Below are positions 4,353-31,540 of a stretch of DNA of 31,540 nucleotides, in pieces. A program made the position numbers and the translations under genes. Position 1 is the stretch's first letter. Every line of letters starts with the position of its first letter. Source of the DNA: Microcoleaceae cyanobacterium (GTDB lineage: Bacteria > Cyanobacteriota > Cyanobacteriia > Cyanobacteriales > Microcoleaceae); the NCBI GenBank assembly GCA_051652765.1, contig JBOFUV010000045.1, positions 1 to 31,540 on the forward strand, in the 5' to 3' direction. The notes under the pieces were generated by a model. The model was not told the origin of the DNA and searched no databases. It saw nothing but the letters and a program-made list of their open reading frames with translations.

Positions 4353-5139
4353 AACCTTCTCTGCTCAAGGAAATCTTGCTGGTCTAAAGTGACACCATCA
4401 TAACCTGAGAAAGACTGAAGTTCGGAATAAAGTTTAATGCAAAGATTAACGCAAAGACTAAGCCTTTACTGCTTAATCTTGTTTTTTTCGGCAAGTTAAG
4501 CTCAAGCTCAAATCAAGTTAAGCTCAAGCTTAAATAACGTGTAACGATAAGCTATGGCAATCCTTAATCATGGGTAAGTAAGAATGTAAGTGGAGGCGTT
4601 TCATAGAACTTCCAATATGCTTATGGCTGAAGTCCACACTCCAAATGTTGATAAATCTTTCCTGGTTTTTATTACGAAAGTCAGTTGATTGAAACGGTAT
4701 TGATGTGAAATTGATGTGAAGTTTATGATGTAATTCTTTATTTGATCTTATTTGGAGTTGAGATGCAGTTCGGAGGGAATAAGTTGCCCAACCTCCAATA
4801 AGATTGATGATTTTTGAGCGAGGATTTGCTCTCCCGAACTCAGTTGGAGAACGAGTTGGAGCGTTGCCGTAAAGATTCCAGCAAACATTATTCTTTCAAG
4901 CATTGGAATATTAGGAGTTGCTAATGAACCTTGACGCTTTTTATCCTACAAAACTTGCAGATCGGACGGGGTGATTGAGCGACCCCTAGACCGATAACAC
5001 CAGTCAAGCGTAGATGTGATGTCCCTCACGATCAATGGGTTCAAGTCACAAATTGACTGGACTGAATCTACACGGCACAGTCACTACAACGGTAAAATGT
5101 GCCAGTAACGAGGTTTGTTGAACCCAAGGGAGGGCAATA

Positions 5140-6801
5140 ATGTTGGCTTATATTCTGGCGATCGCTGTGGGTCTAGGAAGTGTTGCCTTGTACATGGCTG
5201 CCTTCTTTTTTCCTGAAGTTCATCGTAAGGGGGATTTTGTGTGGAGTGGCGTAGGATTTTTCTATGCCTTGACGCTATGGGCTTGTGCAGGACGGATCAC
5301 TGGAGCAGTCCTCCTGGGTCAAGGGGCAAGCGTTGCCCTGATTGGCTGGTGGGGATGGCAAACGTTAACGTTGCGGCGGGCAGTTGCTCCTGCGGGACTG
5401 AAAACCCCTGTTCCACCGAAGGTTCAACAGCAGCTTGCTGAAGTCTTTCCAGCAGAGCCGATTCAAAGTCCCCAGGAACTCAAGTCCCAGGAACTCAAGT
5501 CCCAGGAACTTGGCGCAGTTGCTTTTGAGGCGCTCCAAGCTCCTATTGTTTCTGAACCCATAAACCCTGGTGTTGAAGGGGTTGTTGAAGGGATTCAGGC
5601 CATCAATCAGAAGGAGACCCCAACCTTTTCTGCTCCAGAAGACATCGCCGTTACTGATACTGAACTTGAAGCAGTCGTTGAACCCAGGGACTTTGGATCT
5701 GAGGCAATACCACCTCTCGAAGCGCCAACTCTCGGGTTTCAACCTGGGGAGATGCCAATCTCTGAAACCCTGGAAATTTCTCAAGATCAGGACTCAAGTC
5801 CAACGGTAGAATTTGTCGAAGAACCCTTCAAGGTTCTGCCTAGCAGGGCTGAACCCCAATTTACATCAGCTCAATCTGCACCTGCGACTCAGCCCAAGGG
5901 ATTATCCAAACTCCTGAGTTCAATGACTGGGTTATTCCAACGGAAAAAGGGTCAACCCCAGTCAGCCGCAGTCCCGTTGGCAACTGCCCCTGAACAGCTA
6001 GAGCAAGCGGTAGATAGCTTCGGTCAAAAGGTTCAGGGTGTGGCTGAAATCGTCAAGGAAAAAGTTCAGGACGCGATCGCAGATTCCAAAGAAGCTCTAG
6101 CAGATTTGGAATCCACTGACTTCGGTCAAAAGGTTCAGGGTGTGGCTGAAACCGTCAAGGAAAAAGTTCAGGACGTGATCGCAGATTCCAAAGAAGCTCT
6201 AGCAGATTTGGAATCCACTGAGTTTGGTCAGAAGGTTCAGAATAAAGTTCAGGGTGTGGCTGAAACCGTCAAGGAAAAAGTTCAGGACGTGATCGCAGAT
6301 TCCAAAGAAGTTCTAGCAGATTTAGAATCCACTGAGTTTGGTCAGAAGGTTCAGGGTATGGCTGAAACCGTCAAGGAAAAAGTTCAGGACGCGATCGCAG
6401 ATTCCAAAGAAGCTTTAGGTGAAACGGTTCAAGCCTTGCAGGCCAGTTCTGATGTCAATTCCAGTGAGTTCCGCAGTGAAAACCCTGGGCCAGAAGGTGC
6501 GGACGTGATTTTGGAGATCATTCAGTTAAACACTGATCCCTCCATTGAGCCAGAAACTTTAACCGTTGACCAGACCGAAACAGGTTCAGTCACCGAACGT
6601 TCTGAGGCTGAACGGTCTGATTTTTCAGAAGCCCAATCTGCAGAAGCTCAACCTCAAGTTGCGTTGGAAGCTCCTTCCCTTGACGACTACTCAACAGAAA
6701 CTGCTGAAAAGACTGCTCTCAAGCGTCCTAACCCCCCAACACCAAAGCCCAAAAAAGCGCCCCAGAAACCGATTGAAAAACCCGAGCTTGATTCTGAATG
6801 A
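5140..6801 (+). CDS. ycf66: Ycf66 family membrane protein with long acidic, repeat-containing C-terminus
   Basis: N-terminal MLAYILA...FFPEVHRKGDFVWSGVGFFYALTLW...RITGAVLLGQ is the Ycf66 domain; RBS-like AGGGAGG upstream. Confidence 0.8.
   Translation: MLAYILAIAVGLGSVALYMAAFFFPEVHRKGDFVWSGVGFFYALTLWACAGRITGAVLLGQGASVALIGWWGWQTLTLRRAVAPAGLKTPVPPKVQQQLAEVFPAEPIQSPQELKSQELKSQELGAVAFEALQAPIVSEPINPGVEGVVEGIQAINQKETPTFSAPEDIAVTDTELEAVVEPRDFGSEAIPPLEAPTLGFQPGEMPISETLEISQDQDSSPTVEFVEEPFKVLPSRAEPQFTSAQSAPATQPKGLSKLLSSMTGLFQRKKGQPQSAAVPLATAPEQLEQAVDSFGQKVQGVAEIVKEKVQDAIADSKEALADLESTDFGQKVQGVAETVKEKVQDVIADSKEALADLESTEFGQKVQNKVQGVAETVKEKVQDVIADSKEVLADLESTEFGQKVQGMAETVKEKVQDAIADSKEALGETVQALQASSDVNSSEFRSENPGPEGADVILEIIQLNTDPSIEPETLTVDQTETGSVTERSEAERSDFSEAQSAEAQPQVALEAPSLDDYSTETAEKTALKRPNPPTPKPKKAPQKPIEKPELDSE
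5471..5510 (+). repeat. 15-bp in-frame tandem repeat (SQELK, about 2.7 copies)
   Basis: CCCAGGAACTCAAGT at 5471 and 5486, with a partial copy at 5501. Confidence 0.9.
6019..6417 (+). repeat. 102-bp (34-aa) in-frame tandem repeat, 3 full copies plus 1 partial
   Basis: Units start at 6019, 6121, 6223 (with a 12-bp insertion) and 6337 and are nearly identical at DNA level. Confidence 0.95.
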
Positions 6802-24135: not shown

Positions 24136-25818
24136 ATGACTGTTTTAATCCGGCCTCTCCCGCTCAATGTTGTCCATTTGATTGCTGCCAGTGAAGTCAT
24201 TGACTCGTTGGCGGCTGTGGTTCGGGAATTGGTTGAGAATAGCCTGGATGCAGGGGCAACTCGAATGACCGTGTCCCTTTGGCCAGAACAGTGGCGAGTT
24301 CAAGTCACAGATAATGGCATCGGCATCAATTTAACCAACTTGAAACAGGCAGCAACTGCTCACAGCACCAGTAAAATCAGTACCTTGGCAGACCTAAACC
24401 AGGTGAGAAGTCTGGGGTTTCGGGGGGAAGCGCTTCATAGTTTAGCACAGCTCGCCAACCTAGAGATTGCCAGTCGATGTGCCGAAGCATCAGGATGGCG
24501 CATCAGTTATGATTCTCAGGGCAAACCAATCAAAACAGAGGCAGTCGCGATCGCCCCTGGAACGATTATCACAGTTTCTAATCTGTTTACCCATTGGCCC
24601 GCCCGCCGTCAAGCCCTGCCGTCTCCCGCCCAACAATTGCGAGGTGTGCAGCTTTTGATCCAGTCCATCGCCCTGTGCCATCCCCACGTCACTTGGCAAA
24701 TTTTCCAAGGTGCTATTCCCTGGTTGCAGATTAATCCAGGGGAAAATGCTCAGTTTATTTTGCCCCAACTCCTACGAAGTATTCGGCTGAGCGATTTGCA
24801 GTATCTGAGGTCAAAGCTGAAAGCCCAAGGGTCAACCCAGCAAAATCAGAGTCTAGACATGACTGGAGCCATTGAACTGGTGCTGGGACTACCCGATCGG
24901 TGTCATCGTCGCCGACCGGATTGGGTAAAAGTGGCGGTAAATGGCCGCATGGTGCGATTACCCGAAATCGAACAAACCGTCCTCAGTGCCCTCAGTCGAA
25001 CCTGCCCCCGCGATCGCTATCCAGTCTGCTTTGTGCATCTGCAAGTTCCGGCTGAACAGGTCGATTGGAATCGTCATCCCGCCAAGGAAGAGATTTATCT
25101 GCACAATTTACCCGATTGGCAAAATCAAGTCCACCAAGGGATTGACCAGGCTCTGCGGTTAAATGCGGCAGAACTTTTGGTTCCCCTCCATCGCGCTGAA
25201 ACCTTGTTAAAAGTTTCAGAAAATGCCGGTACTTATCAGGCGGCTGCTGCTCACCCAAAGCGAGAGGAATGGGGGCTTTTGGAGTTGAAGGCGATCGCCC
25301 AAGTCCACAACACCTACATTGTGGCAGAGCATCCCAACGGTCTTTGGCTCGTGGAGCAACACATTGCCCATGAACGAGTCCTGTTCGAGCAGATTTGTGA
25401 TGCTTGGCAACTCGTGCCCTTGGAACCGCCAATTGTCTTGCAACAGCTTACAGAATCTCAGTTAGAGCAACTCCAGCGGTTGAACTTAGAGGTTGATCCC
25501 TTCGGTGAAAACCTCTGGGCCGTTCGGAATGCCCCGGCACTCTTGGCTCAACGTTCAGACTGTGCAGAGGCCCTAACCGAACTCAGTTTGAGCGGTGACT
25601 TGCCCGCCGCTCAAGCCGCAACGGCCTGTCGCAGTGCGATTCGCAATGGCACACCCTTGAGTCTGTCAGAAATGCAGACCTTGCTCGATCAATGGGTCAG
25701 AACCCCTAATCCCCGCACCTGTCCCCACGGTCGCCCGATCTATCTGCGGTTGGATGAATCCTCTCTCGCCCGCTTCTTCCGTCGTCATTGGGTGATTGGC
25801 AAAAGTCATGGTATTTGA
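24136..25818 (+). CDS. mutL: DNA mismatch repair endonuclease MutL
   Basis: ELVENSLDAGA, DNG.G, TSKI and LGFRGEALHS; C-terminal EQHIAHERVLFE, ACR and CPHGRP endonuclease motifs. Confidence 0.96.
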   Translation: MTVLIRPLPLNVVHLIAASEVIDSLAAVVRELVENSLDAGATRMTVSLWPEQWRVQVTDNGIGINLTNLKQAATAHSTSKISTLADLNQVRSLGFRGEALHSLAQLANLEIASRCAEASGWRISYDSQGKPIKTEAVAIAPGTIITVSNLFTHWPARRQALPSPAQQLRGVQLLIQSIALCHPHVTWQIFQGAIPWLQINPGENAQFILPQLLRSIRLSDLQYLRSKLKAQGSTQQNQSLDMTGAIELVLGLPDRCHRRRPDWVKVAVNGRMVRLPEIEQTVLSALSRTCPRDRYPVCFVHLQVPAEQVDWNRHPAKEEIYLHNLPDWQNQVHQGIDQALRLNAAELLVPLHRAETLLKVSENAGTYQAAAAHPKREEWGLLELKAIAQVHNTYIVAEHPNGLWLVEQHIAHERVLFEQICDAWQLVPLEPPIVLQQLTESQLEQLQRLNLEVDPFGENLWAVRNAPALLAQRSDCAEALTELSLSGDLPAAQAATACRSAIRNGTPLSLSEMQTLLDQWVRTPNPRTCPHGRPIYLRLDESSLARFFRRHWVIGKSHGI

Positions 25819-26104
25819 ATTTGTTCTCCTGGATTATGGGCCTTTATAGAACCCATTTGGTATCTATCTAACCCGTAGCAAGTCTTTTGAGCATCAACCG
25901 GACAAAGCAAAGATTAACCTTATCATTTCTGACGGTTGGGTTTACAGATGAAACAGTGGTTGATGGAGTTGGAGATGACATCTTTATTAACCTGGGTTGC
26001 TTAACTCAGGAGCAGTATCTCGGCCTGATTTTTTAGCTGGTGCACCTAGGCGATCGCTGAATTAAACCCCGGAAAAGTAGCCGTTCAAGGTTGGGCAAAA
26101 TGCG

Positions 26105-26460
26105 AATGCGGGTTTGGTATGAGATCAATGCGGGTTTGGTGTGAGATCAAGGCGGGTTTAGTAAAAGATCAACGCTGGTTTGGTGTGAGATCAATGCAGG
26201 TGCGAAGCACGATCAACTTAATCTTAGTTTGAGATCAACTTGATCTGAGTGTGAGATCAATCCAGGTACGAAGCACGATCAACTTGATCTGAGTGTGAGA
26301 TCAACGGGCAAGTGCTCTGCGATCAACTTGATCTGGGTGTGAGATCAACGGGCAAGTGCTCTGCGATCAACTTGATCTGGGTGTGAGATCAACGGGCAAG
26401 TACTCTGTGATCAAGTTGATCTTAGTGTGAGATCAATGGGGGTTCGATGAACGATCAATC
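26105..26460. repeat. 22-bp-period array: invariant GATCAA plus variable 16-nt inserts (16 hexamers)
   Basis: GATCAA begins at 26123, 26145, 26167 and so on to 26453, always exactly 22 bp apart. Confidence 0.97.
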
Positions 26461-26503
26461 TGAACTTAAGTGTAACCCACCACGGATTTATTCAATCATC
26501 AAG

Positions 26504-26587
26504 CTAGAAATAATCTCTTCCATCATAGTGCTTGAGCCGAATCACATCACGTACCTGATCCAGTAGCTTTTTGAGACGTTGTTCCAT
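26504..26587 (-). pseudogene. intI: Truncated integron integrase (N-terminal 21 codons only)
   Basis: My translation is MEQRLKKLLDQVRDVIRLKHY-DGRDYF*. The first 21 aa match the integron-integrase N-terminal pattern (LLDQVR..IR.KHYS), and the remnant is divergent from the attI and cassette array as in canonical integrons. Confidence 0.85.
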
Positions 26588-26593
26588 TGCAGG

Positions 26594-26698
26594 ATAGACA
26601 GAAAGTTTCAGTCTAAAATCTTCACAATTCGATGCTAAGCCGAAAAAACCTGGATAACCTGCATATACGGAAAGTTTCAATCTAATAACTCGTTAGAC
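26594..26698 (+). other. attI-like integron attachment site
   Basis: L box ATCTAAT (26680-86), 5-bp spacer AACTC and R box GTTAGAC (26692-98), the same 7-5-7 geometry as attI1. Upstream direct repeat GAAAGTTTCA(G/A)TCTAA at 26601 and 26670. Confidence 0.75.
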
Positions 26699-26929: not shown

Positions 26930-27487
26930 ATGCCAGAGAACTTAAAAATTGGGGCATTCGTCTTCGGGGCAATTCTTGTATTGATTGCTCTACTTGGAGG
27001 TAACTTCAAGGTCTTTGGGGCTGAGGTGGCGGCAACTATTTCTAATCGGTTCTTGCGTTTTGTGGCATTTGCATTAGGTGCAACCTTCTTGGTTGTAGCA
27101 ATGCACCCGCCTAATCTTGGAAACGGATCGGTTGCCCCCGATCCAACTTCTTCATCCCACCCACAATCAACAACTAGTTCACTTTCTCCACAGACTACAC
27201 AGTCAGTTCCCTCAACTGTTACGCCTTCTCCTGTACCAACAGAAAATAGTTCTTCCTGCACCCTAACAATCAGCAACACCTTAGTATCATTGATGAGTGA
27301 ACCCGAACGACTCAGCCGACAGATTGCTAAAGTAAGACCTGGTGAATATACTTCTTTGGATCATAAGATAACGAGTTTTCATGGTCTAAAAGAGGAAGGA
27401 TGGTTCCAAATCGAGGTAGAAGGTCGAAGGGGTTGGATAGCTGATGATACATGGACAATTGACAGGAAAAGTAGTTCATGCCCGTAA
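26930..27487 (+). CDS. Membrane-anchored protein: 2 TM helices, Ser/Thr/Pro linker, C-terminal SH3b-like domain
   Basis: RBS GAGG; GWFQIEVEGRRGWI is typical of bacterial SH3 domains; two Cys bracket the domain. Confidence 0.7.
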   Translation: MPENLKIGAFVFGAILVLIALLGGNFKVFGAEVAATISNRFLRFVAFALGATFLVVAMHPPNLGNGSVAPDPTSSSHPQSTTSSLSPQTTQSVPSTVTPSPVPTENSSSCTLTISNTLVSLMSEPERLSRQIAKVRPGEYTSLDHKITSFHGLKEEGWFQIEVEGRRGWIADDTWTIDRKSSSCP

Positions 27488-27510
27488 TGCATAATACAAG
27501 GAAATAGACT

Positions 27511-27831
27511 ATGGAGATCCTTCCCTTCATCATCATTGCTGTCGCTGGATTGCTGATTGTAGGAATCTTTGTTTCCTTAATCGCAACTTTCATACGCAAT
27601 GCTTCCTCACCTCGTCTTGCCAGAGAAGCCCGCGTTGTTGGCAAGCGTTTGGATGTCTCAGGTGGGAAAAATGGATCTTCCACCTATTACTACGCGACTT
27701 TTGAATTTCCTGATGGAAGCCGTGAAGAATTTGGTGTGGGTTCCAAAATTTATGGGATGTTGGCAGAAGGAGATTTGGGGACACTGCATTCTCAAGGAAC
27801 GTATGTGTGGGAATTTAATCGGCGAACTTGA
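27511..27831 (+). CDS. DUF2500-like membrane-anchored protein
   Basis: N-terminal TM helix, A.VVGKR..VS, TYYYATFEF..G.R.EF.V and YGMLAEGD.GTL..QGT. Confidence 0.75.
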   Translation: MEILPFIIIAVAGLLIVGIFVSLIATFIRNASSPRLAREARVVGKRLDVSGGKNGSSTYYYATFEFPDGSREEFGVGSKIYGMLAEGDLGTLHSQGTYVWEFNRRT

Positions 27832-27924
27832 AAAGCTCTCAGCACAAGTGGCTTGGCCAATTACGCATAATCCTTGAGTCCAAAGTACAATGAATGCAGT
27901 TCGTTATCAAATCCCTAAATAGCC

Positions 27925-28155
27925 ATGACACTTGAAAATCTTGAGGCTGAAGTCCTTTCACTTCCGAGAGACTCTCAAGCAACATTATTAGCTCGGCTCT
28001 TGGAGCATTTGGGTCAAAGCAATGAAATTGATCAAGAAGTGGCATCTGTCTGGGCTGAGGAAGCTGAACTACGCGATCAGGCAATGGATGACGGGCAAAC
28101 TGCTGGAGTTCCTGCTCAACAAGTGTTTCAGCGAATTCGTGCGTCTTGGCAATGA
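27925..28155 (+). CDS. Addiction-module antitoxin (Unstab_antitox/TIGR02574-like)
   Basis: 76 aa, acidic; L.LP...A.L...LL..L and W.EEAE.R; stop overlaps the toxin start (ATGA). Confidence 0.85.
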   Translation: MTLENLEAEVLSLPRDSQATLLARLLEHLGQSNEIDQEVASVWAEEAELRDQAMDDGQTAGVPAQQVFQRIRASWQ

Positions 28156-28448
28156 AAAACGTTGTATTTCATCCACTAGCGGAACAAGAGTTACTTGATG
28201 CCGCGACCTATTACGAGGAGCAAAGAGTTGGGCTTGGGCTAGAGTACCTAGAAGAAGTAGAACACGCAGTCAACTTCCTCACACGGTATCCTGAAGCTGG
28301 TTCCAAAGTTCGAGGCTTTGTGCGTCGTCTAACTTTACCCAAGTTCCCCTACTCCCTCTTGTATCGCTTGTTAGAAAATGACCAGATTCGTATTTTGGCA
28401 GTGGCGCACCACAAGCGTAGACCACAATATTGGCTTGATCGAGAGTAG
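28152..28448 (+). CDS. Type II toxin, RelE/ParE family
   Basis: FHPLAEQEL.DA..YYE, P.AG, RR..L.KFPYSLLY and ILAVAH.KRRP.YW; ATG at 28152. Confidence 0.9.
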   Translation: MKNVVFHPLAEQELLDAATYYEEQRVGLGLEYLEEVEHAVNFLTRYPEAGSKVRGFVRRLTLPKFPYSLLYRLLENDQIRILAVAHHKRRPQYWLDRE

Positions 28449-28457
28449 TTGGCGGCG

Positions 28458-28543
28458 GTCTAACAATGCGTTGGTGCGGACGGGCGAGAGATCTTGGTGC
28501 TGAGTTCGAGATTATCTGCCGCCGCTTATCTCAGTCGTTATAC
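28458..28543 (+). other. attC site 1 (86 bp; L boxes degenerate)
   Basis: R'' GTCTAAC lies 9 bp after the toxin stop and R' is GTTATAC. Internal imperfect inverted repeat; central region similar to attC 2. Confidence 0.8.
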
Positions 28544-28572
28544 GGCAAGCATCCACTTCGGAATCCCGGCCA

Positions 28573-29451
28573 TCAAATTTGTAGCCACGTTAGATCTTTC
28601 CCAATTATTAATTCTGTCTTCTTCGCATGATGAGTGTTCTTCATTGCAATTAATTTCGTCTCAAACTTACAGCGACTTGCCAATGCCTGCACTTCACTGT
28701 CATTGTCATAAGTCATCAGAAAATTGCCTTGTAGTCTATACGCTAAATCAAATAAGGCTTCATGATTAATATCTGAGTAACGATAGAGTCGTTGCCCAGC
28801 CTTTATATAAGGTGGGTCAATGAAGAAGATAACACTATCTCTGCTTGCATTCTTCTCACAAACCTCGAATGCATCACCTTCGATAAAGTTAATCTTGTGC
28901 TTGATTTGATCTATTGCAAGAATTCGCTTTTTAAGGGTTTCAGGATACCAGCGAGAGGTTATTCCTTTGCCATTTTCCCCATTCTTGATAAAACTAGCTC
29001 CGTCTGCAAGGATACCGCCTCGATTCACACGGTTCTTGATGATCGTCGCGAAAGCACGAGACTCCAAAGATTCACTAGCCTGATCTATTACTCTTCTTGC
29101 GCTCTCTGGAGTCAGTTGAAAATTCATAATGGCATCACCAAGCCACTCAGCTCCACCATTCAAAATGATTTTCCAAACAGCAGCGACACCCTCATCTTTT
29201 TCAACCATCGTTACCCGATCAACAAGATTTTCACAAACAGCCGTTAAACTCACAATGCCACCACCTGCGAAGGGTTCGATCAGTTCTTTGCCAGAACCAC
29301 CCTGATAATGCAACCATTGCCGGATCTTTGGAATGAGCCAAGTTTTCCCACCAGCATATCGGAAAGGACTGCGCTGTGGGACGCTGGAAACATTCACCAC
29401 ATTCTGATGACTAGTTATGGTTTTGGGGTCGAATAGCTCAATTTGAAGCAT
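28573..29451 (-). CDS. DNA amino-methyltransferase, alpha class (Dam/D12-like)
   Basis: SPFRYAGGKTW, motif I EPFAGGG, and motif IV FFIDPPY. Confidence 0.92.
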   Translation of the reverse strand: MLQIELFDPKTITSHQNVVNVSSVPQRSPFRYAGGKTWLIPKIRQWLHYQGGSGKELIEPFAGGGIVSLTAVCENLVDRVTMVEKDEGVAAVWKIILNGGAEWLGDAIMNFQLTPESARRVIDQASESLESRAFATIIKNRVNRGGILADGASFIKNGENGKGITSRWYPETLKKRILAIDQIKHKINFIEGDAFEVCEKNASRDSVIFFIDPPYIKAGQRLYRYSDINHEALFDLAYRLQGNFLMTYDNDSEVQALASRCKFETKLIAMKNTHHAKKTELIIGKDLTWLQI

Positions 29452-29462
29452 CAGCTTGTTTC

Positions 29463-30335
29463 CTACTGCAATGGAATATCGATGATAGTTTGTGTGTCTG
29501 GTGGATTGTCTAACTTGTTATCAAGCTTTTGTTGTAGTATCTCAATAAAATCTTCTAGTTTGCCAGCTTCCGGCGTAGAAATTCGGTTAATGGCTGCCCA
29601 GTATTCTGTATAGATAACATCACTTAAAACTAAGTTAAAGTGCTCATCCTGGCGTTCCAGATCGTAAAGATTCCAGGCAATTTCAGCTTGACTCTGTCCG
29701 ACCTGTGGCAGCTCTGGTAGTGTTTCAAAAAAGCTCTTTTGTACAACGATCACCTGCTTCTTGCCCCACTCACGCAAAATCTTCCCTTTGTAGAGTAATT
29801 GCGGAACCAAACGCTTACGGGAAGATGAAAGGTAGTCTGGAGTTGGATAATAATCTGCGAGTTGTGACCAGTTAACAGATTCCCAACCTTGAGGGTCATT
29901 CATGTAAGTTTCAAAAGGCTTACGCACATTGCCAGAGATGTACACTGCTTGCACTTCAACCGCCCCAAAATCTAAAACCTTCCCTCGATCATCATAGGAA
30001 ACCAGCACCACATCAATATTTCCAGCGGATTGACCGTTGGCATCTTTCAAACGAACTTCCGTGAGGGAAGTCCAGCTAGTATTTTCTCCAAAAAAGAAAG
30101 TGGCAGCATTTTCAGCAATTAGCCAATCTTGCCGAAAACGAACTGGGCAGGTAATGACCGGGGACTGTTTGTGGTAAATACTGCATACTCCGAGTGGATC
30201 GTTTGCCTTATCCTTCGTACAGTTAGGTACCTTGTTGTTGTACGGGCACAGCTTATTACGCCGATATCGCGTTGCTTGTTCCGAGAAACTGTTACTCGGA
30301 AAGCCAAAGACCTCTGCAAGCGGATTATTAGACAT
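29463..30335 (-). CDS. NotI-family type II restriction endonuclease
   Basis: AEVFGF, a Cys4 metal site (CPY...CTK...GVCS...CP.RF), the catalytic ID...AVEVQ, and PDYLSS.RKRL.PQL..KG; 11 bp upstream of the MTase. Confidence 0.82.
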   Translation of the reverse strand: MSNNPLAEVFGFPSNSFSEQATRYRRNKLCPYNNKVPNCTKDKANDPLGVCSIYHKQSPVITCPVRFRQDWLIAENAATFFFGENTSWTSLTEVRLKDANGQSAGNIDVVLVSYDDRGKVLDFGAVEVQAVYISGNVRKPFETYMNDPQGWESVNWSQLADYYPTPDYLSSSRKRLVPQLLYKGKILREWGKKQVIVVQKSFFETLPELPQVGQSQAEIAWNLYDLERQDEHFNLVLSDVIYTEYWAAINRISTPEAGKLEDFIEILQQKLDNKLDNPPDTQTIIDIPLQ

Positions 30336-30431
30336 AGGGGCTGGGCTGAACTAAGACTATGACAAGTTCTAAGGGTACCGTGCAGACTCTGAAAAAGCCA
30401 GCCATAATTGAAGTTATTGGCGTAGGTTGCC

Positions 30432-30517
30432 GTATAACACTGCGCTGCAACGGACGGACGGAAGATCTTGGTGATGTGCCAAAGGGTGCCTACCGCCGTT
30501 GAGCTTCACCGTTAGCC
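30432..30517 (+). other. attC site 2 (86 bp, canonical)
   Basis: R'' GTATAAC, 5 bp, L'' GCT[G]CAAC ... L' GTTGAGC, 6 bp, R' GTTAGCC. The L boxes pair perfectly apart from one extrahelical base. Confidence 0.93.
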
Positions 30518-31403
30518 TGCTTCGTTTGGTTGGTTAGGAGTTTTTGATTAAGGCGTAGTTGAAAAATCAGAGATAGGGTTAAGAGAGTTAAGTGATGTTT
30601 TATGAACTTGAGACAATAAGAGAATTTTGCAATTGTGGCAATTTAATGAAGTACGAAACTAATTTTCGGCATAAAGGTGGAAGTGATAGTAATGAATACT
30701 ACACCATTGAAATTTTTGAAATATATACGTGCCCAGCTTGTGAGAATGCAACTCTCCTATGCTACTCCACAGTGGGGAATGACCTAGAAGACGAGGCGAA
30801 TGGATATGATGAAGAAAAGGAACTTTATCGAGAGTATGCTCGAACAGTTTTATATGCTCCGAACAAGTTGCTTCATCATGCAATTCCCCGATCTATTGCC
30901 GAAGTCACTTATCAAGCACAATCAGTTTTGTCTAATTCTCCACGTGCAAGCTTTATTTTATGTAGAGCAGTATTAGAAGAAATTTGTAACAATTTTAATA
31001 TTCCTACTGAGAACTTGAACAACAAAGGCAAGAGTCACTTTGTGAATCTTAAGGAAAGGCTTACTCAGTTATTTGAACAAGAAAAGATGGCAGAAGATTT
31101 AATAGCTATCATTCAAGGGATTAGAGAGCTTGGTAATGAGGGAACTCATTCAGATCACCTAACGTTTGCCAAACAGGTAGGGGTTAAAGATGCAAAGAGT
31201 TTGTTGATGCTTGTGAATTATGTTACTGAGCGTCTATATGTTGATAAATACCGACAACAGGAGGCAGAAGAAGTGTTGAGCAAACTGAAAGGAAAAATAT
31301 TGACATCAGAGTAATAAACAACAGGCTAACAATTCTGGTGCAGCGGATTGGCCGAAGCCGCTTGTGGTGTTGCAAAGGTATCGGCAACCGCTGACCAGAA
31401 ACG
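30512..31403 (+). mobile_element. Gene cassette 3 (892 bp, single ORF)
   Basis: GTTAGCCTG (30511-19) is the reverse complement of CAGGCTAAC (31322-30). Confidence 0.9.
30592..31314 (+). CDS. DUF4145 (HEPN-like) domain protein with N-terminal Zn-ribbon
   Basis: CNC...CPAC, then ASFILCRAVLEEIC, L.ERL..L and IRELGNEGTH (RxxGNxxxH). AT-rich; start is GTG 30592 or ATG 30595. Confidence 0.8.
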   Translation: MMFYELETIREFCNCGNLMKYETNFRHKGGSDSNEYYTIEIFEIYTCPACENATLLCYSTVGNDLEDEANGYDEEKELYREYARTVLYAPNKLLHHAIPRSIAEVTYQAQSVLSNSPRASFILCRAVLEEICNNFNIPTENLNNKGKSHFVNLKERLTQLFEQEKMAEDLIAIIQGIRELGNEGTHSDHLTFAKQVGVKDAKSLLMLVNYVTERLYVDKYRQQEAEEVLSKLKGKILTSE

Positions 31404-31409
31404 TTCGAC
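31324..31409 (+). other. attC site 3 (86 bp)
   Basis: R'' GGCTAAC lies 9 bp after the stop; TTCTGGT[G]CAGCGG pairs with CCGCTGACCAGAA; R' is GTTCGAC (non-consensus C). Confidence 0.9.
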
Positions 31410-31540
31410 CGCTAGGTTATCCGTGGGGCGGCAGCATGAAATTTATCTGTTAGAGTTCAGCCTGAAGTTAACTTGAGGCTGTTGATAAGACAGTGTTTCG
31501 AGGTTACTGGCGGGGCGATCGCGCAGTTAAGCTGACTAAT

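Follow-up and report, generated by a model that had tools for sequence, protein, structure and literature searches.

The window, by which we mean the whole stretch of 31,540 nt analysed here, is contig C45 of a 5.04-Mb Microcoleaceae genome (G000). The genome holds 3,231 HIP1 sites, and the contig carries the photosystem I genes psaAB, an E1 dehydrogenase gene, and mutL. Between mutL and a series of gene cassettes lies a tandem array of 22-bp units, which abuts a truncated integron integrase gene (intI). The features of this region are as follows.

24136..25818, plus strand: mutL, a chromosomal neighbour
25845..25921, plus strand: IS5-like element or MITE end, recurring on C35, C50, C68, C100, and C134 and before the arrays of C67 and C101
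25924..26007, plus strand: fragment sharing 94% identity with part of contig C121 and found ahead of several arrays
26101..26122, no strand: degenerate distal array unit
26123..26458, no strand: core array of 16 units of 22 bp
26459..26525, minus strand: array head of about three degenerate units, ending in the fixed boundary TGATGGAAG and aligning gap-free to the head on C123
26525..26587, minus strand: codons 1-21 of the integron integrase gene, the remainder lost; the junction is common to 12 loci of the genome
26588..26695, no strand: attI side, a shortened run of TGAAA(C/T)TTTC repeats followed by a putative attI core (26684-26695)
26930..31410, plus strand: gene-cassette array with attC-like sites

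mutL was placed outside the element because other arrays have different neighbours. The IS5-like family name is presumed from a transposase remnant, and the attI core was assigned by its position and its likeness to other copies.

The array unit and its copies in the genome

Sixteen exact GATCAA hexamers occur at 26123, 26145, and so on to 26453, and all 15 spacings are 22 bp. The sequence-only reading had described this lattice, with 16-nt inserts in the class order A A A C B B C B D B D B D B E, a palindrome at 26232-26246, and an intI stub ending about 45 bp away. These observations were reproduced; the stop codon of the stub (26504-26506) lies 45 bp past the end of the last hexamer. The array is also non-coding: its longest open stretch is 41 codons, and a coding repeat is ruled out by stops in all six frames. 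A promoter and terminator scan gave results at chance level. Across the whole genome, 29 period-22 runs of at least three hexamers were found, where 0.004 runs of three would be expected by chance, and none occurred at periods of 15-21 or 23-43.

The period and positions of the unit were read correctly, but the "insert classes" are variant right half-sites, because in a shifted register the unit is a 15-bp imperfect 7-1-7 dyad (AGATCAA-N-right half) followed by a 7-bp linker. The left half of the dyad, AGATCAA, hardly varies. B units, which are near-perfect dyads, have its complement as their right half, and A, C, D, and E units have a variant there. The core array is polar, with B/D/E-type units near the head (right) and A-type units near the far end (left). 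Similarly, only part of the stub is what it was taken for. Codons 1-21 are intI sequence; the lattice runs on in degenerate form to 26525, and therefore codons 22-27 and the stop are not intI and are supplied by the array head.

The window array is not unique, since arrays of its type occupy at least 30 loci in the genome. This list combines period-22 runs with profile and dyad scans, and a short head fragment on C131 was left out. On C22, C31, C32, and C116, and twice on C123, an older subfamily is present whose half-sites have different bases. The 24 GATCAA-type loci contain 203 spacings, of which 195 are multiples of 22, seven are one base longer, and one is 25. The proposed conservation of length thus holds in whole units, and the seven 23-type spacings mean that the phase is not absolute. 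The number of exact hexamers ranges from 2 to 24 per locus. Dependence on GATC, suggested earlier with methylation in mind, is doubtful: on C31, C32, and C123, the lattice persists in sister arrays where other bases replace GATC, and GATC is also missing from most of the HU-Ig arrays described below.

The arrays of the genome have a polarity: one end carries the shared head and the opposite end the A units. They sit in intergenic regions dense with other small repeats, and IS-like and MITE ends, which adjoin several copies, are candidates for how orphan arrays move. The fixed head boundary opens with TGA or TAA, and a similar context is seen in three Hormoscilla genes and in the HU-Ig gene of the congener (G002). 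Reading this end as an old stop codon, with a mobility mechanism attached, was rejected: orphan arrays in Hormoscilla hold the opposite end fixed, and therefore no mobility mechanism was drawn from the boundary. The 16-nt segments recur within and between loci instead of being unique spacers, and there is no Rfam match, so a CRISPR array was also rejected.

An island at C31:14000-23000 (L092) holds a split DndD-like ORF (by eye), an HNH nuclease gene, xre, and the gene of a PAZ-domain Argonaute of 733 aa. One array stands behind xre, and the head motif occurs a second time ahead of the Argonaute start. Another Argonaute-like gene, on C116, has its last codons fused to an array head. An Xre operator was discarded as an explanation, as an array was present at 0 of 29 other xre loci (one with an N run there) and, by eye, at none of the three related Argonaute loci. 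A link to DUF4143 ATPases was dropped with no match in the genome, its congener, or the Chloroflexota genome G527.

The 22-bp period is typical of iterons. R6K-type iterons, F sopC, and R1 parC consist of fixed-length units in helical phase, with a palindrome in each sopC unit. Descent from the iterons or centromere of an integrated, decayed plasmid or ICE would account for the period, and a 22-bp GATCAA-containing run in Methylomicrobium (L003) lies beside an ORF that, by eye, is replication-initiator-like. The units of that type are, however, unrelated in sequence to those of the window. Moreover, no rep or par gene was recognised among the listed ORFs near the arrays of the genome (mostly by eye), the window contig is chromosomal with no such gene adjoining the array, and the comparison with mobile DNA suggested earlier drew a blank in both 72,556 plasmid and 50,697 phage records. 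The geometry of iteron, centromere, and operator arrays is alike, but the present arrays have no Rep or Par partner, many chromosomal copies, and private cores. We therefore consider this origin very improbable. The run at L003 is probably made of ordinary iterons, and a second Methylomicrobium locus (L018) has similar units.

Integron remnants beside the arrays

TGAAA(C/T)TTTC repeats precede all intI starts in the genome and are possibly sites for the integrase or a regulator. The region from the intI start to attI is a repeat of about 41 bp containing this motif, in up to five copies; it is shortened at 26588-26683 in the window, and the same repeat precedes the intI of the congener. The cassettes of the window carry two small ORFs, a ParE-type toxin-antitoxin pair, an inverted pair of D12 methylase and NotI-like endonuclease genes, and a DUF4145 gene. 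The inverted cassette, at 28573-30335, is a restriction-modification pair in which the D12 enzyme is an adenine methylase. By pattern, attC-like sites were located at 28458-28540, from 30432, and near 31326 (the third by eye). No intact integron integrase was found in the assembly, the best TIGR02249 match scoring 63.9 bits against a cut-off of 265, and the neighbour is therefore a CALIN (Cury et al., 2016; PMC4889954): it has at least two attC-like sites by pattern and no intact integrase nearby. As an integron finding, a CALIN with an integrase stub is ordinary, and the class, as outlined in the consulted part of that paper, fits the cassettes and not the repeat array. In all, 18 intI N-termini were counted in the genome, which contains many dead integrons with every integrase broken and several retaining cassettes.

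The array had been proposed to be an integron-associated element. That it replaces or regulates the integrase would agree with the 16 of 30 loci that touch an intI stub or attI region, through at least three different junctions (intI codon 21, C50, and C123 at 18.0 kb). At C50 and C123 (18.0 kb) the head is joined directly to attI repeats, at C71 and C88 the stub is reached across a small inserted element, and the C101 array runs off its contig. Against such a role, 13 of the 30 loci have no adjoining integron, and 12 of the 16 that do, including C146, share the same intI-to-head junction. The near-complete intI of the congener (G002:C133) has no array behind it, and there was no integron gene among the ORFs read at the related Chloroflexota arrays; arrays in Chloroflexota, Hormoscilla, and Treponema follow HU-Ig genes or stand alone. 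The arrays are thus not confined to a fixed place in integrons. Because 12 loci share one junction and 13 have none, the integron link is mostly one accident that was copied. An integron-specific element is largely refuted, and we give it hardly any weight.

Arrays behind HU-Ig genes

Only one of 40 relatives of the genome, the congener, had array-like DNA, and a search of 400 other genomes from the order found the A-type pattern in none of them. A scan of a genome collection returned 71 loci with five phased GATCAA hexamers, most of them unrelated in sequence. An Ardenticatenaceae genome (Chloroflexota; G527) contains at least six arrays between genes that use the same A, B, and D unit types, and one of these directly follows an HU-like gene. 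Viral contigs gave 10 pattern matches and no HU-Ig relative, and two of three matches in a metagenome scan are the same arrays as in G527. Separately, 22-bp GATCAA arrays with different units were observed about 1-3 kb from HU-like genes in Caldithrix (L006) and Spirochaetia (L019, L181).

The G527 gene before the array encodes HU-DNA_bdg and DUF4469 domains (Pfam PF14848 + PF14734) and belongs to the Ig-fused subclade of the HU-HIG family, here termed HU-Ig. Behind each of the three HU-Ig genes of G527 lies a 22-bp array, and the three cores differ. Terminator-like hairpins, noted by eye, separate gene and array at the three loci, which favours a role at the DNA level. PF14848 is present in the congener, and a sample of 400 other cyanobacteria gave no match to it; DUF4469 occurs five times in Hormoscilla (G1019). 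An alignment-based model of the HU-Ig protein of the congener had a pLDDT of 96.4 and matched PDB 4FMR (Foldseek E 4e-17, TM-score 0.50) with a different domain angle. PF18291 gave weak matches only and is uninformative, because classical HU proteins in control genomes give such matches too.

An array was called where the self-match at lag 22/23 reached at least 0.55 (55 nt) within 350 nt after the stop codon. Arrays of 22/23 bp directly after an HU-Ig gene were seen in Bacteroidota, Spirochaetota, Chloroflexota, Cyanobacteria, and one Verrucomicrobiales genome, with a separate core in each array. In organisms that were not chosen through arrays, a downstream array was present at 12 of 22 HU-Ig genes (10/20 + 2/2; paralogues not independent), covering 7 of 9 organisms, and 10 of 22 had no detectable array. 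On the upstream side of the same genes the count was 1/21 (1/19 + 0/2). Controls gave 5/611 for other genes of the host genome, 1/131 for genes at xre loci, and 22/157 for other ORFs in the same loci, whose windows can overlap the arrays. In array-selected genomes, 19 of 26 scored DUF4469 genes, again including non-independent paralogues, had a downstream 22/23-bp repeat, compared with 0/22 upstream; one further locus was too short to score, and G835 was counted as unselected. The threshold was chosen after a stricter first pass (0.6/66 nt), in which 5/20 HU-Ig genes scored against 6/748 and 0/118 controls. DUF4469 gave no match in 38 of the 46 genomes examined for it, 45 of which have some fivefold GATCAA run, and these repeats are mostly unrelated in sequence.

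Cores were compared at 28 of 33 array-bearing loci, those with a full-length protein. Two protein pairs at 96% identity share cores, and pairs at 75-89% mostly do not. Between paralogues that are 84-89% identical, the shared fraction of core positions is only 0.41-0.66, with a background near 0.45; two G527 proteins that are 75% identical (L221 and L219) have unrelated cores. Judged by these comparisons, the core sequence is private to each gene and evolves more quickly than the protein. Dyads are enriched, with at least 6 of 7 pairs in 36% of the 28 cores compared with 7% of shuffled-unit tandems.

Orphan copies of gene-linked arrays occur in two other genomes. In Hormoscilla G1019, gene-linked cores recur on ten further contigs, and no HU-Ig ORF was recognised on the three inspected; in G527, the second of the gene-linked cores recurs once without a gene. 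The arrays behind two HU-Ig genes of G1019 (L257 and L261) seem to flip orientation midway, which would give a large dyad-symmetric array, and two genes of another genome, G531 (L222 and L226), are followed by 11-bp GATC lattices.

If the array acted as RNA, a transcript of repeated units would be the ligand or guide of the HU-Ig protein. Many arrays begin within a few bases of the HU-Ig stop codon and could be co-transcribed, and private cores would fit a programmable ligand. RNA or protein partners for Ig-fused members are indeed proposed in the part consulted of Burroughs et al. (2017; PMC5499826). However, the window array folds no better than shuffled sequences (z -1.48, minus strand) and has no Rfam match at E up to 1. 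In addition, a 7-1-7 dyad is a poor hairpin, A units are not self-complementary, and hairpin terminators precede some arrays. An RNA role is accordingly improbable.

A profile search found no intact HU-Ig gene in the G000 assembly. A profile of 131 HU-Ig sequences had one match there (E 3.7e-15), a 57-residue 3' fragment at C123:14991-15161 that is 56% identical to the congener protein (E 6e-14) and scores 25.1 bits for DUF4469 (cut-off 22.6). This remnant lies about 180 bp before an array head, and the window head agrees with that head at 47 of 88 positions, gap-free and in register, where random draws gave a mean of 22.3 and a maximum of 41 in 20,000. Because of this match, the intI stub is placed at the spot where the HU-Ig gene would have stood. 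The remnant heads the older subfamily, and therefore the direct parent of the GATCAA subfamily was not seen; the congener's own HU-Ig gene has no GATCAA array after it. When 52 post-gene regions were aligned gap-free to the window array, L221 of G527 scored highest (73/110, same orientation; shuffled 46 +/- 1.8), ahead of L267 of Hormoscilla (62) and C123 (61). In terms of sequence, the window array is closest to an array behind a Chloroflexota HU-Ig gene, with the same polarity. No HU-DNA_bdg + DUF4469 gene adjoins the window array, which makes it an orphan.

The same ancestry could be accompanied by no function at all. The arrays would then be neutral minisatellites that arose as a by-product beside HU-Ig genes, for example through promoted duplication, and afterwards drifted and hitch-hiked with IS and MITE debris. 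Fast core turnover, the range of 2 to 24 exact hexamers and occasional 23-bp units, the crowding of the host intergenic regions with other small repeats, the persistence of arrays after loss of the HU-Ig gene, and the restriction of the A-type pattern (0/400 in other genomes of the order) are all in keeping with neutrality. It explains less readily why the period is only 22/23 and the position only on the 3' side of the gene across phyla, why dyad symmetry is enriched, and why the motif occurs at no other period in the genome. We regard neutral origin and drift as the less likely account, yet one to be taken seriously.

Origin and possible role

The window array is real, non-coding, and an orphan of the HU-Ig gene-array pairing, and it is not an integron element. 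That its ancestry lies in an HU-Ig module is very probable. We infer that a phased protein-binding lattice is the best reading of the array. More specifically, the evidence leans towards derivation from the strip 3' of an HU-Ig gene, likely built to dock the encoded protein on one face of the helix; for binding by the HU-Ig protein itself, the balance is only slightly favourable. Docking on one face is suggested by the dyad in each unit and by a period of 22-23 bp that is kept while the word changes.

The following history would accommodate the data. The genus may have gained an HU-Ig gene and its array by horizontal transfer. One protein dimer would occupy each unit, with two helical turns between successive dimers. 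Slippage or unequal exchange would lengthen, shorten, and homogenise arrays in whole units, which could yield the B-D higher-order repeat. The HU-Ig gene would then have decayed in this lineage, and a deletion or rearrangement may have fused the array head to intI codon 21. Finally, the block of array, stub, attI, and cassettes would have been copied to 12 places, probably aided by IS or MITE ends. Today the window copy is probably an inert relic, held in phase by whole-unit slippage, because the assembly has no intact HU-Ig or IntI gene.

Three points weigh against binding by HU-Ig proteins: a published structural argument, the rapid turnover of cores, and the 10 genes without arrays. In the sections consulted of PMC5499826, the clasp of the Ig-fused subclade is judged unlikely to bind DNA, and the proteins are judged unlikely to be sequence-specific factors (Burroughs et al., 2017). 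Fast core turnover is hard to square with a fixed recognition code.

The array-linked gene is a member of the Ig-fused HU-HIG subclade (PF14848 + PF14734; PDB 4FMR; PMC5499826), which falls within the HU/IHF superfamily, and is broken in the host genome. The consulted text of PMC5499826 describes HU-HIG genes as having almost no conserved linkage and mentions no repeat array. In the literature searched, which lay mostly outside subscription journals and excluded supplements, no description of arrays at HU-HIG genes was found, and the gene-array pairing is apparently unpublished. In organisation the present arrays resemble RAYT-REP systems, in geometry centromeres or operators, and in anatomy BrickBuilt.

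BrickBuilt of Porphyromonas gingivalis is a minisatellite-MITE with 19 dispersed intergenic copies and imperfect 23-nt tandem units (Klein et al., 2015; PMC4596501, in the part consulted, as for all that follows on it). It shares with the present arrays the gain and loss of whole units and fixed flanks. It differs in its period of 23 instead of 22 and in having a leader and a tail with terminal inverted repeats, whereas the present arrays have one fixed head, a variable far end, and no inverted ends seen by eye. That text proposes no link to HU. BrickBuilt_14 (its Table 1) adjoins PGN_0872, a PF00216 DNA-binding gene, which seems to have the element on its 5' side.

REP/REPIN sequences are hairpin doublets moved by a tyrosine transposase, RAYT, according to the portion consulted of Bertels and Rainey (2011; PMC3116915), and they likewise combine a separate repeat family beside each paralogous gene with gene-free intergenic copies. 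Unlike them, the present units run head-to-tail in helical phase with poor folding, and no catalytic domain is known in the partner protein. With no stable hairpin doublets (folding z -1.48 for one strand as RNA), REP/REPIN/BIME was rejected as an identity. The end of the transposon IS607 bears a few phased direct motifs beside tnpA/tnpB (PMC6188088, as far as consulted); here the units are dyads and far more numerous, and no tnpA/tnpB was recognised among the listed ORFs. TrtA is an Xre protein, and the HU-Ig gene TDE_2259 appears in the consulted part of that report only as a down-regulated gene (PMC12724145).

HU-HIG is a large family of solved structure for which no ligand is known; at E up to 1e-10, the congener protein matches 826 clusters (50% identity). 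The private, phased arrays that follow roughly half of the HU-Ig genes examined provide a concrete substrate. As G527 holds three paralogues and three arrays in one genome, and with them a built-in specificity control, HU-HIG function becomes directly testable. The pairing also offers a parent for dispersed 22/23-bp minisatellites that are otherwise unexplained. On a bolder and rather unlikely reading, HU-Ig proteins and their arrays would constitute an undescribed addressable system, in which each gene copy has a private 22/23-bp word that turns over more quickly than the protein and is coated by it in helical phase, and copies of the word spread as docking sites or recombination handles. Dead integrons, together with their defence cassettes, would owe their dozen sites in this genome to such a system, and BrickBuilt would represent another orphan family of this type.

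The window holds other tandem repeats. Short A/T-rich intergenic repeats with 13-bp and 11/22-bp periods lie at 2496-2550 and 4492-4535, and no kinship to the GATCAA family was seen in them. A 102-bp (34-codon) tandem repeat is located at 6018-6427, within a 553-aa ORF (5140-6801).
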